Source of the DNA: an uncultured bacterium
GTDB taxonomy: Bacteria; Chlamydiota; Chlamydiia; Chlamydiales; JAAKFR01
Reading direction: 5' to 3'
NCBI GenBank assembly: GCA_964588495.1
Contig: CAZPPS010000009.1
Coordinates: forward strand, 9,833 to 73,832
Length of the DNA stretch: 64,000 nucleotides
Part shown: in pieces, positions 54,553 to 59,100 of the stretch
How positions within the stretch are numbered: the stretch's first letter is position 1
Layout of the letters: the number at the start of each line of letters is the position of its first letter
The notes under the pieces: generated by a model
Database searches by the model: none
What the model saw: only the letters and a program-made list of their open reading frames with translations
What the model was told of the DNA's origin: nothing
Program-made: the position numbers and the translations under genes

Positions 54553-55260
54553 TCAAGAGCTCTTTAGACGGCCAGCTTTTTTGCGCTTCACAGGAAGTTC
54601 GGTAAAGCTTTGCATCTGTAGATACCGTACGACCCTATCTTTTGTAATGTCGGTCAAAGTGATCGTACTTTTTAGAACGCGGGCATTTTTTATGGAAACA
54701 TCAAAGTCCCGGATAACAATGAAATGCGTTTCGCGCTTATCAACACTTAAAGTTTTATGGATTTGATAGCTTCCAGCGATATACATCTGACTATTAATTT
54801 CAGCAGGCAAATCCCTTTTTTCAACCGCTTCAAAGTTGTCATAACGAAATAGACTTTTGAACTCTTCTTTAAAAGCAGCCTCAGCTTGATCAATAGGGAT
54901 TTTCTCCGCATCTCGGTTTTCTCCGATCTCATGACATCTCTTTGAGCTACACCCCAACATCGAAACACCCACAATGCCCATCAACAAATTCGCACCAATC
55001 ACAGCATATTTCTCGAAGAATTCAGGCAAGTGGATGCATTTATAAATATGATTCAGAGCACCTGCCGCTCCTAATAACCCCATCCCTGTCAGAACAGTTC
55101 CCATTAAAATAACAAATAGGGCAGAGCTAATGGGTTTTTTGGCATCTACGACATCTCTTTGGGCTTGAAAACTTTTGGTGGAATTGTCCTCAGTTTCAGC
55201 CTGCAATTGATCTAGAAAAACCTTCTGTCTTATTAGATCTGCTGTACATATAAACGACAC
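54553..55260 (-). CDS. Inc-like membrane protein (bilobed hydrophobic domain), paralog pair 1a
   Basis: GTG start. The hydrophobic lobes are ALFVILMGTVLTGMGLLGAAGAL and AVIGANLLMGIVGVSMLG. The C-terminal block FIVIRDFDVSIK...RVVRYLQMQSF is shared with 55437-56066. Confidence 0.65.
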   Translation of the reverse strand: MSFICTADLIRQKVFLDQLQAETEDNSTKSFQAQRDVVDAKKPISSALFVILMGTVLTGMGLLGAAGALNHIYKCIHLPEFFEKYAVIGANLLMGIVGVSMLGCSSKRCHEIGENRDAEKIPIDQAEAAFKEEFKSLFRYDNFEAVEKRDLPAEINSQMYIAGSYQIHKTLSVDKRETHFIVIRDFDVSIKNARVLKSTITLTDITKDRVVRYLQMQSFTELPVKRKKAGRLKSS

Positions 55261-55436
55261 TTCTCAATCCCGTTATTATTTAATATTATAGTAACATTTC
55301 AGTGTAGATATAATTTTAAGATCACATTAATTTTTAAAAATATAATGAGACAAGGCAAAAAAAGCCTCTTGTAGAATCTACCTGCGAACATTTCTGTTCG
55401 ACCGGAAATCCCCAAGAGGCGTTAGAAAGGACGGTC

Positions 55437-56066
55437 TTACTTCCCTACTTCTTCAGCTATATGTTCCCTAAAACCTTGCAATTGCAGATAGGTTACAACC
55501 CTACCTTTTTCCTCAGCAGTCAATTTTTGTGTAGATTTTACTGACATATCAAAGTCCCGAATTGCAATAAAATCCTCTTCAATTTGATAACATTTTTCCC
55601 TAGGCAAATGAAAAGTAAGAGAATTTTTCCCGTTAGTCTCGAAGTGCGAATGATTAAATAAGTCTAATCTAAAGCTTGTCTCAAATCCACGTTCTGCCTC
55701 ATCAATAGGCTCCTTCTTTTCATTCCTGTGTGCTCTATTGCCATCACAAACAACAGCGCTACGCCCCAAAATTCCAACACCAACAACACCAACTCCAAGA
55801 TTGACACCCATCACATAATAATTCTTAAATGCTTCGGGCAAAAGTTGAACCACATTAGGAATATGAGACAATCCTCCAGTCAAACCGAGAAAACCAACGC
55901 CTGTCAAAGCCAACCCCATGAAAATGCCGGCAACTGCCCATCCCAGTGGATGTTTAGCATCGATGGCATCTTTTTTAGCACCAAAACTATCTGCCGAATG
56001 TGTGTTTTCGGCCCCTAATTGATTAAAAAATGTAGCTTTAACTTCTGCACTCTTATAAATAGACAT
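55437..56066 (-). CDS. Inc-like membrane protein, paralog pair 1b
   Basis: ATG at 56066 with SD AGGAGG (the track TTG at 56093 is rejected). MSIYKS.... Lobes AVAGIFMGLALTGVGFLGLTGGL and VMGVNLGVGVVGVGILG. C-terminal block FIAIRDFDMSVK...RVVTYLQLQGF. Confidence 0.7.
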   Translation of the reverse strand: MSIYKSAEVKATFFNQLGAENTHSADSFGAKKDAIDAKHPLGWAVAGIFMGLALTGVGFLGLTGGLSHIPNVVQLLPEAFKNYYVMGVNLGVGVVGVGILGRSAVVCDGNRAHRNEKKEPIDEAERGFETSFRLDLFNHSHFETNGKNSLTFHLPREKCYQIEEDFIAIRDFDMSVKSTQKLTAEEKGRVVTYLQLQGFREHIAEEVGK

Positions 56067-56231
56067 CAAATCCTCCTGTGTATTAAAAATCAAAAATATT
56101 ATAACATATAATTATAAATATAATTTTAAATTTATAATAATTTTAGATTAAATACTGGATTCAGCCGCATGTTCTGGATTTTGTTTTTTTGTTAAGAATA
56201 ACGAATGAACGTAAGCGATGAGGCGCTCAGC

Positions 56232-56356
56232 CTCTCCTGGCAGTAGCGGCGATCCTTCGCCGCTCTGCTATGGATAAAAATCCTGTTAGGACAATGTATC
56301 TAAAAAGATCTTTCTGCCGATTGAATGGCGGCGCAGGAGCGCCGCTACTGCCAGAA
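56232..56356. repeat. double-hairpin palindromic element (family 3), copy 3 with enlarged centre
   Basis: CTGGCAGTAGCGGCGATCCTTCGCCGC (56237-56263) pairs with GCGGCGCAGGAGCGCCGCTACTGCCAG (56328-56354). The copy is intergenic. Confidence 0.75.
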
Positions 56357-57337: not shown

Positions 57338-57489
57338 AACCCCTCATCGTTTGCTATAAGGATAGCAAAAACAGTATAAAGGTTTCATTAAAAACATTAC
57401 TTGGAGGATTAACCGTTTGATAGACAATTCGCTGATTTTTTTCCTTCGCAAAAGAGAGCATTCACAAATATTTCGAAAGTCTAAGCGGC

Positions 57490-58140
57490 TCACACCTCTG
57501 TATATTTTAAGTAGTGCTCAAAGTAGATTTTGAATAAATCCGATTCATTTCGACTGCACTTAGTTGTTTGCCATGATGTGCCCTCTTTATCTTTGTAGAT
57601 GTAGAATGTGTTTTCTGACTCCTTACCCCATGCATCGTACATAAGTGTATAACTGCAATTTATCAGCTTTTGGGCATGCACGCTATCTCCCATAACCTCA
57701 TTAGGGTCTATTTTAGATACTGACCTTAGGCGCTCTAGTTCTTTAGTATACGCAGCTTCCACGTCATTATAATGTCTAAGCGTATGGTTTCGAAGTGAAA
57801 GCTTCTCATGAAGCTTATAGGAAGGAATAGATACTAGGATGAGGCCAGAGACGATAGGGACAGCAACGATCGCGATCGAAGCTGGCAAGCTAAGTTGAAG
57901 TGCTGGTGGAAGTATTGAAATGACTTGGCAGCTTTGAAGTAAACATGTTATCCCTAAAGCAGCAACGCCAAGGGCAATTCCAGAAATAGTGAGGATCGCT
58001 ATGATTGCCGAAATGTCGATCGGATGCTTATTCCCGGCTTTCTCTCTCTTGGTATCAAAATATTTGCCTTAAACTTGTTGATTGCGTTTGTAAATGTCCC
58101 AAAACTTGCCATTGGGGTCGAGAGAATTGATAATTGCCAC
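57490..58140 (-). pseudogene. paralog pair 2b, interrupted by an in-frame TAA (58069-58071)
   Basis: Hand translation gives (GTG)VAIINSLDPNGKFWDIYKRNQQV*GKYFDTKREKAGNKHPIDISAIIAILTISGIALGVAALGITCLL...LPASIAIVAVPIVSGLILVSIP.... This is colinear with 56375-57337 across the stop. There is no ATG, GTG or TTG between the stop and the TTG at 57888. Confidence 0.65.
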
Positions 58141-58209
58141 ACTTACTCCCTTTGTTCAGAGAAGTTTAATCGGAGCGCATAAAGATTGCTCTTAAATTTT
58201 TTTGGCAAA

Positions 58210-59100
58210 TTACTGCGCGCGTTGCCATTCGATGCCGTTGAAATCAGTGGCAGGGCGGCCATACAGAAGTTCCTGGAGTCTGTTAAAGCCCTCTTCTTCT
58301 TTTGCCTCAGCTTCAGGGTCATGATTATAGACGCCGTCAAGTTGAATGGCTCCGCCATCCCAATTAAATAAAAAAGTAGGAATGATGTCACGGTAGACAT
58401 TGTAGACGGGACACCACTGTTTTGCACGGTTTCCATTGTCATTTACAACCAAAATTAAAAGAAGGGGCTGCTTGAGATGTTGTACCTTTTGCTCGATGGC
58501 TTCCTCTGATAATTGACGATCTTTAGTCAAAACTTCTCTAATCTTAGCATCATTTTGAGCATTATCAACCACTGCCAGTTTCAAAGGCATCAACTCGATA
58601 GAGCCAATAGAACACCTCATGATTGGCTTAGGAAAATGTGTCTTGACAGATGCTGCGAATTCTTCCTCGGGAATTTCCTTAGAAGGGATTTCTGTTAGCC
58701 TTGGCGGCAAACTTTGAGATTGCTCGATCTGGTCCAACAATGAAGGATTGTCTAGAAGATCCATCAAAGTTAATCGCTCGTAAAAAGGTTTTCTTTCTCG
58801 TAGTTTAGACTTGTTTAGAACAGGTTTGTCGGTATTAACGGTTTCATCGGTATCGGGAGCTTGACCCTTTGCCTGATAAATTCCATAGCCGATGAGGACA
58901 GCTCCCACTAAAAGAGCTCCACCTGCTCCTGTCAGCATCGGCCAGCAGCTTCCAATTGTTCCCACGTGATTAAACCAGGCAGGCTGAACACAAACGATAA
59001 TGGCAAACGCAACAGCGCAGATGGCCGTGAGGGTACCAGCAGAAATCAAACTATATTTGACTACCTCAGGGCTACAACTCGAAACAGGGGGAATAGACAT
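58210..59100 (-). CDS. Inc-like membrane protein with unique C-terminal domain
   Basis: MSIPPV.... Lobes LISAGTLTAICAVAFAIIVCV and CWPMLTGAGGALLVGAVLIGYGI lie within the first 80 aa. No family was recognised for the ~210-aa C-terminal part. Confidence 0.65.
   Translation of the reverse strand: MSIPPVSSCSPEVVKYSLISAGTLTAICAVAFAIIVCVQPAWFNHVGTIGSCWPMLTGAGGALLVGAVLIGYGIYQAKGQAPDTDETVNTDKPVLNKSKLRERKPFYERLTLMDLLDNPSLLDQIEQSQSLPPRLTEIPSKEIPEEEFAASVKTHFPKPIMRCSIGSIELMPLKLAVVDNAQNDAKIREVLTKDRQLSEEAIEQKVQHLKQPLLLILVVNDNGNRAKQWCPVYNVYRDIIPTFLFNWDGGAIQLDGVYNHDPEAEAKEEEGFNRLQELLYGRPATDFNGIEWQRAQ

Follow-up and report, generated by a model that had tools for sequence, protein, structure and literature searches.

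What occupies the space between tal and rpoC in an uncultured member of the Chlamydiales, and could the genes found there encode inclusion membrane (Inc) proteins? Inc proteins are defined by type III secretion and by insertion into the inclusion membrane, and they form the main interface between chlamydiae and their hosts. To our knowledge, almost none has been described outside the Chlamydiaceae and Protochlamydia. The stretch analysed here (the window, 64,000 nucleotides (nt), C9:9833-73832) belongs to a contig of a 2.42-Mb assembly in 71 contigs, which is 97% complete. Within it, the 4.8-kb tal–rpoC interval is filled by five open reading frames (ORFs), termed A to E, all on the minus strand as a preliminary description of the locus had claimed; four are intact and one, D, is dead. 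Judged from sequence, we consider it probable, at about 0.6, that the cluster represents lineage-specific putative Inc-type proteins: each protein shows the topology profile of an Inc, the genome carries a type III secretion system, and homologs are found only among chlamydiae. The features of the locus are as follows.

53568-54551, plus strand: tal, flank of the cluster
54553-55260, minus strand: gene A, 235 amino acids (aa) from a GTG start; residues 43-105 form the bilobed hydrophobic domain and residues 176-221 a C-terminal module of ~40 aa
55261-55356, minus strand: upstream region of A, AT-rich; TTAAAATTATAT at 55308-55319; TGTTAC then TATAAT at 55285-55296
55357-55420, minus strand: hairpin and U7 3' of B, probable intrinsic terminator (-29.9 kcal/mol, z -4.2)
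55437-56066, minus strand: gene B, 209 aa, ATG 7 nt after an AGGAGG Shine-Dalgarno sequence; bilobed domain at residues 41-108
56067-56224, minus strand: upstream region of B, 24% GC; TTAAAATTATAT at 56118-56129; extended -10 element TGTTATAAT at 56098-56106
56237-56354, no strand assigned: 118-nt hairpin repeat element 3' of C (-72.5 kcal/mol, z -7.5)
56375-57337, minus strand: gene C, encoding 320 aa, with the bilobed domain spanning residues 40-111 and, in the soluble C-terminal part, two apparent module copies (~180-216 and ~262-298)
57490-58140, minus strand: pseudogene D, truncated paralog of C; in-frame TAA at 58069-58071; bilobed domain at residues 39-110
58210-59100, minus strand: gene E, 296 aa; transmembrane (TM) helices 11-38 and 52-79 form a hairpin, followed by an alpha/beta C-terminal domain (~105-296)
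59210-59330, minus strand: hairpins 3' of rpoC, a terminator-like stem (59210-59237) and a palindrome resembling repetitive extragenic palindromic (REP) elements (59293-59330)
59333-63475, minus strand: rpoC, flank of the cluster

Topology of the five proteins and the proposed Inc assignment

Kyte-Doolittle profiles, complemented for E by an AlphaFold2 model, revealed a single bilobed hydrophobic domain in each protein, at the residues listed above for A to D and at residues 16-74 in E, with no further hydrophobic segment. The preliminary description had noted two hydrophobic lobes close together in all five, and the profiles bear this out. The loop between the two helices comprises ~16-18 aa in A to C, as read from the sequences, and 13 aa in the E model. 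Ahead of the first TM helix there are 15-42 hydrophilic residues and no signal peptide. A bilobed hydrophobic domain with a loop of <30 aa is the criterion by which Dehoux et al. (2011, PMC3048545) recognised Inc candidates, and the hydrophobicity check proposed beforehand for this locus thus gave the Inc profile, two TM helices with a loop below 30 aa, in all five proteins.

Two further criteria were examined. The proteins are chlamydia-specific and lack a conserved prokaryotic domain, with most of the metagenomic matches carrying no taxonomy. Homologs outside Chlamydiota had been named in advance as a finding that would speak against the assignment; those found here lie only in chlamydial genomes or on chlamydia-like contigs. 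Scans of the five proteins and of both family alignments against Pfam and NCBIfam gave nothing above cut-off, the Pfam scan of the proteins gave no match to IncA (PF04156), and a search of PDB sequences with both profiles returned nothing meaningful, in keeping with the earlier remark that no soluble domain was recognisable. As to secretion, genes of a type III system are present in the genome: SctV (TIGR01399) is split over two contig ends (668.5 bits over model positions 142-677 and 290 bits over positions 2-173), and a secretin ORF of 954 aa is present as well.

Genome-wide, a lone N-proximal bilobed domain occurs in 153 of the 2081 crude ORFs (~7%), or in 98 (~5%) under a stricter rule, which falls inside the 4-10% published for chlamydial proteomes (PMC3048545). 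Given the ~7% share, a run of four intact bilobed neighbours plus a pseudogene exceeds chance, and tandem duplication largely accounts for it. Many of the bilobed ORFs elsewhere in the genome also lie in small clusters, for example at C6:20839-22484, C10:1921-4848 and C9:48900-51581.

By this profile the products resemble chlamydial Incs in their single N-proximal bilobed domain with a loop of <30 aa, in the hydrophilic N-terminus without a signal peptide, in their restriction to chlamydiae with poor conservation between species, in tandem paralog expansion and in the presence of a type III secretion system in the genome. They fit equally the in-silico catalogues of putative Incs (Dehoux et al. 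2011, PMC3048545; Lutter et al. 2012, PMC3290821), in the operational criteria as in the 5-7% share within the range of 4-10%. Unlike the named Incs (IncA-G, InaC and others), the candidates A to E show neither sequence similarity to them nor an evident coiled-coil-rich C-terminus. The catalogues cover the Chlamydiaceae and Protochlamydia amoebophila and, as far as our searches show, hold no member of the A–D superfamily or of the E-type domain described below. For an environmental chlamydia, the accounts in PMC3048545 and PMC3290821 cite Heinz et al. (2010) for four localised Incs, pc0156, pc0399, pc0530 and pc1111 of P. amoebophila.

If A to E act as Incs, the hydrophilic N-terminus of 15-42 residues would serve as the type III secretion signal, the two-helix hairpin with its loop of 13-18 residues would insert into the vacuole membrane, and the soluble C-terminal part would be exposed to the host cytosol, where it might bind host factors. 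Secretion, membrane targeting and a host-facing function are predicted in this way from the protein sequences.

Several observations weigh against this assignment. None of the five reaches the cut-off of a named Inc; the best score, of C against InaC_CT813 (NF049857), amounts to 13.1 bits (E-value 0.067) against a cut-off of 200 and covers the TM region only. A bilobed domain does not guarantee translocation, and several C. trachomatis candidates stay inside the bacteria (Dehoux 2011, PMC3048545). The hydropathy rule is unspecific: among 109 ORFs from non-chlamydial control loci it picks out 3. Furthermore, C has an unusually acidic N-terminus rich in Tyr, and none of the RNA runs searched contains the locus.

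The retention of bilobed candidates inside bacteria and the non-chlamydial matches to the rule also favour a different reading, in which A to E are ordinary inner-membrane hairpin proteins that keep both termini in the chlamydial cytoplasm and play a lineage-specific role within the bacterium (such as one in the envelope or in the developmental cycle) without being secreted. An N-in, C-in topology with a short loop and K/R-flanked helices would suit the bacterial inner membrane equally well. However, the very fast turnover of these genes, which are species-restricted, duplicated and pseudogenised, and their position at a variable hotspot are the pattern of host-interaction genes rather than of housekeeping membrane proteins. 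Moreover, the same profile recurs in 5-7% of the ORFs of a genome with a type III secretion system, and ~90% of the tested C. trachomatis and C. pneumoniae candidates carry a functional type III secretion signal. We therefore regard the inner-membrane explanation as doubtful, though it is the best of the alternatives.

Paralog pairs, a probably shared module and the family of gene E

A and B share 41.6% identity over 209 aa (E-value 3e-41), and C and D share 41.8% over 213 aa (E-value 1e-47). Of the earlier scheme of two paralog pairs plus a singleton, the pairs hold, at ~42% identity each; gene E is a singleton only within the cluster, having four paralogs elsewhere in the genome, and the two pairs are probably related to each other. 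Both pairs arose by local tandem duplication, in which the promoter of A/B was copied as well.

Distribution of the two pairs is narrow. Two further paralogs of A/B lie on contig C7 (40844-41503 and 41889-42821), one of them with a duplicated C-terminal module. Relatives of A/B occur in one genome of the same genus (ORFs of 316, 359 and 269 aa; best E-value 3e-23) and in a few genomes of the same family, and only there. C/D are found in this species alone, with no match in a sample of 300 genomes from the order, among them two from the same genus. A word-indexed search of 5.8 billion proteins returned for C nothing but itself, and likewise for A and for E; this search missed even the paralog B and is insensitive here.

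Sequence comparison revealed that the C-terminus of the A/B family consists of one or two modules of ~40 residues, with the pattern Φ-x-[VI]-[VIL]-[KR]-x-x-[DEQ]-G-x-L-L-x-T…T-x-E-x-L-x-x-[FY]-L. C apparently contains two copies of this module (YALAIKDRQGHLLQT… and YIFVIKLPEGSVMQR…) and D one, and MAFFT sets all of them in register. A motif of the interhelix loop, H..(I/V).(I/L)LP..(F/L), is also common to A to D. An hhalign comparison of the A/B family with C/D gave a probability of 88.6% (E-value 2.7e-6) over 203 columns, driven in part by the TM region. A hidden Markov model of the A/B-family modules alone scored C at an E-value of only 1.3, and the module link rests on hhalign, the MAFFT register and inspection. 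An AlphaFold2 model of C from a mixed alignment of eight sequences was unusable (mean predicted local distance difference test (pLDDT) score of 47) beyond its secondary structure, which fits the beta-beta-alpha arrangement proposed for the module. Taken together, A/B and C/D are probably, though not provably, remote homologs within one fast-evolving superfamily that seems to share the ~40-aa C-terminal module and has further members on contig C7 and in a sister species.

The regions upstream of A and B are paralogous too. Both contain TTAAAATTATAT, a 12-mer found at exactly two places in the window, where 0.02 would be expected, and ~9-10 nt downstream of it the sequence TGTTA(CT)ATAAT, an extended -10 element that is perfect in B. 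The preliminary description had assigned shared motifs to the upstream spacers in general; they are present, as the reverse complements of TTAAAATTAT(AT) and TGTTA(CT)ATAAT, in the spacers of A and B, and not clearly in the other three. A five-way alignment of the upstream regions gave no motif common to all five, and in a consensus scan for sigma-70 promoters and terminators the counts were no higher than in shuffled sequence. Sequence reading and predicted folds thus form the basis on which B would have its own extended -10 promoter and intrinsic terminator, and A probably its own extended -10 promoter.

Gene E is, by sequence, a diverged copy of a family separate from A–D, which is unnamed and was seen here only in chlamydial genomes. 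Its four paralogs comprise a tandem trio at C14:35192-38054, with 25-28% identity over the full length, and a truncated copy at C16:38154-38585 with 45%. Every member of the trio starts with MCNP(L/M)SLR. A profile search of 1.84 billion representative proteins yielded 28 clusters at E-value <= 1e-3, nine of them at <= 1e-30. Several of the matches span the full length, at 269-306 aa, and share both the hairpin and a C-terminal domain that ends in D.NG(L/I).W. Where annotated at all, the clusters are 'hypothetical'; one derives from a metagenome-assembled genome (MAG) of Waddliaceae and another from a contig with chlamydia-type genes. Among 400 genomes sampled across the phylum, the domain occurs only in three families of the same order, often in tandem arrays. 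In a genome of another chlamydial family (G124), a 472-aa protein (L087, 586-2004) has a hydrophobic N-terminus followed by two E-type C-terminal domains.

AlphaFold2 modelled E from an alignment of 15 sequences with a mean pLDDT of 73.7, predicting the hairpin (helices 11-38 and 52-79), a disordered linker and the alpha/beta C-terminal domain. Over residues 160-296 the means of 10-residue blocks reach 83-94, except at ~221-260 (50-73). A Foldseek search of this model against the PDB gave no neighbour at E-value <= 1e-3. A PH(S/Y)W.LW motif opening helix 2 is common to the E family and to those A/B-family members that lie on C7, and hhalign relates these two groups with 81% probability over the hairpin only. 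A phage holin identity for E (PF07332, Phage_holin_3_6) was considered and rejected: the match has an E-value of 0.017 and 15.6 bits against a threshold of 28.4, and covers the TM hairpin alone.

Decay of D and variation between populations

The organism is uncultured and known only from metagenomes of sludge and biofilm; the sequence recurs at >=99% identity in activated-sludge, sludge and biofilm metagenomes of four separate studies. D is colinear with C and contains an in-frame TAA at 58069-58071, followed by no start codon for ~60 codons. In the contigs of an independent study (P2), D has the same TAA plus a second stop, W171*, as well as three nonsynonymous changes and one synonymous change. 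D is a true pseudogene, dead and decaying. The other four genes, A, B, C and E, remain intact in all populations that the four studies sampled. Between populations A differs at nine sites, six nonsynonymous and three synonymous; two differences lie in C and none in the covered part of B, and E differs at three sites in the P2 strain, all synonymous. Single-nucleotide polymorphisms (SNPs) number ~21 in the 4.5-kb cluster, with density raised in A and D, against 1 in 1 kb of tal and >=2 in 4.1 kb of rpoC, the latter possibly up to 6; these are small numbers taken from contigs, not reads, and as many as 4 more SNPs, lying anywhere in the 16-kb stretch, are unplaced. Duplication, divergence and decay at one spot, as surmised beforehand, are thus borne out by D, with its TAA in two populations and its second stop in one, and by the raised SNP density in A and D.

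Such decay raises the question of whether the whole cluster might consist of non-functional remnants of genes duplicated in a recombination hotspot, with frames that stay open by chance or recency. The stops in D, one here and two in the other population, would fit, as would the excess of nonsynonymous differences in A, the lack of homologs of C and D elsewhere and the lack of an RNA run with the locus. This explanation is nevertheless unlikely: the four other genes are intact throughout the sampled populations, in both pairs the frames have stayed open and the hairpin and specific motifs persist even at ~42% identity, the three P2 differences in E are all synonymous and its family is conserved in three chlamydial families, and B possesses a consensus extended -10 element, AGGAGG and a terminator.

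Outside the cluster, the contigs of two P2 runs replace 78 nt of the window (51984-52063) by 21 other letters, and SNPs cluster at ~51832-52056.

The tal–rpoC junction across chlamydiae

The tal–rpoC junction is a recurrent hotspot of variable content across the Chlamydiales, tight in some chlamydiae. In 38 chlamydial loci with both genes, the gap ranges from 73 bp (L003), 92 bp (L046) and 124 bp (L044) up to >9.5 kb. The loci closest by tal belong to uncultured Chlamydiales MAGs, the best with 79% protein identity. A comparison with related genomes, which had been suggested at the outset, revealed a variable site with unrelated content even within the genus. One same-genus gap (L001) holds a 1504-aa NACHT/HEAT-repeat-like ORF (13721-18235), two smaller ORFs and a split IS630-type transposase (18689-19740); another (L002) holds, besides other genes, those for a GH3-like glycosidase and an ankyrin-like protein, and next to rpoC that for an unrelated 121-aa bilobed protein. 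Homologs of A to E were found in none of 80 loci of relatives (tblastn, E-value <= 1e-3). Lone bilobed ORFs number 12 of 117 in the gaps against 14 of 428 in the flanks, a ~3-fold enrichment (Fisher p = 0.005). Species restriction, tandem duplication, one decaying copy and a variable hotspot are features typical of host-interaction genes.

The base composition of the locus shows no sign of foreign origin. The spacers have 33-38% GC against 43.4% for the genome, as their earlier description as AT-rich implied, and the GC content of the cluster genes and that of their third codon positions (GC3) lie inside the normal range of the genome. That a recently imported mobile or phage-derived cassette, for instance of holin-like small membrane proteins, underlies the cluster is very unlikely: the weak Pfam holin match of E, the dispersed hairpin repeats flanking parts of the cluster and the IS630-type transposase in the same gap of a same-genus genome would favour it, but the holin match is confined to the hairpin and below cut-off, the cluster contains no integrase, transposase or phage genes and has ordinary composition, and its paralogs are scattered in the same genome with relatives only in chlamydiae.

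Returning to the Inc-type reading, every criterion that sequence can address agrees with the preliminary proposal of candidate Inc proteins, which needs amendment in its details on E as a singleton, on the relation between the pairs and on the scope of the motifs. The statement that only the decayed copy starts with V is likewise to be corrected, since A too starts with GTG. Modestly new are two families not described before and seen here only among chlamydial genomes, of which one has a domain that is modelled with confidence and lacks a PDB neighbour; the recurrent variability of the tal–rpoC junction; and direct population evidence for the decay of a pseudogene. Across natural populations, the locus shows such genes arising by duplication, diverging and dying at one hotspot. 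Its value lies in the catalogue and in evolutionary material; these are genes of an ordinary chlamydial kind, and the understanding of the Inc system is unchanged.

It is possible, as a tentative extension of the structural model, that the C-terminal domain of E (~105-296; core pLDDT 80-94) represents a new host-side effector fold, expanded in tandem in several chlamydial families, that the ~40-aa module of A–D forms a second host-facing unit, and that the tal–rpoC junction serves as a conserved 'plasticity site' for fast-evolving host-interaction genes.

At the edges of the cluster, the stop codons of tal on the plus strand and gene A on the minus strand converge one base apart (54551-54553); the 3' ends of the two must therefore overlap, with no terminator between them. 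The REP-like palindrome 3' of rpoC (59293-59330) recurs in partial form at least 14 times on other contigs, and the arms of the 118-nt element 3' of C (56237-56354) recur as partial copies on four other contigs.

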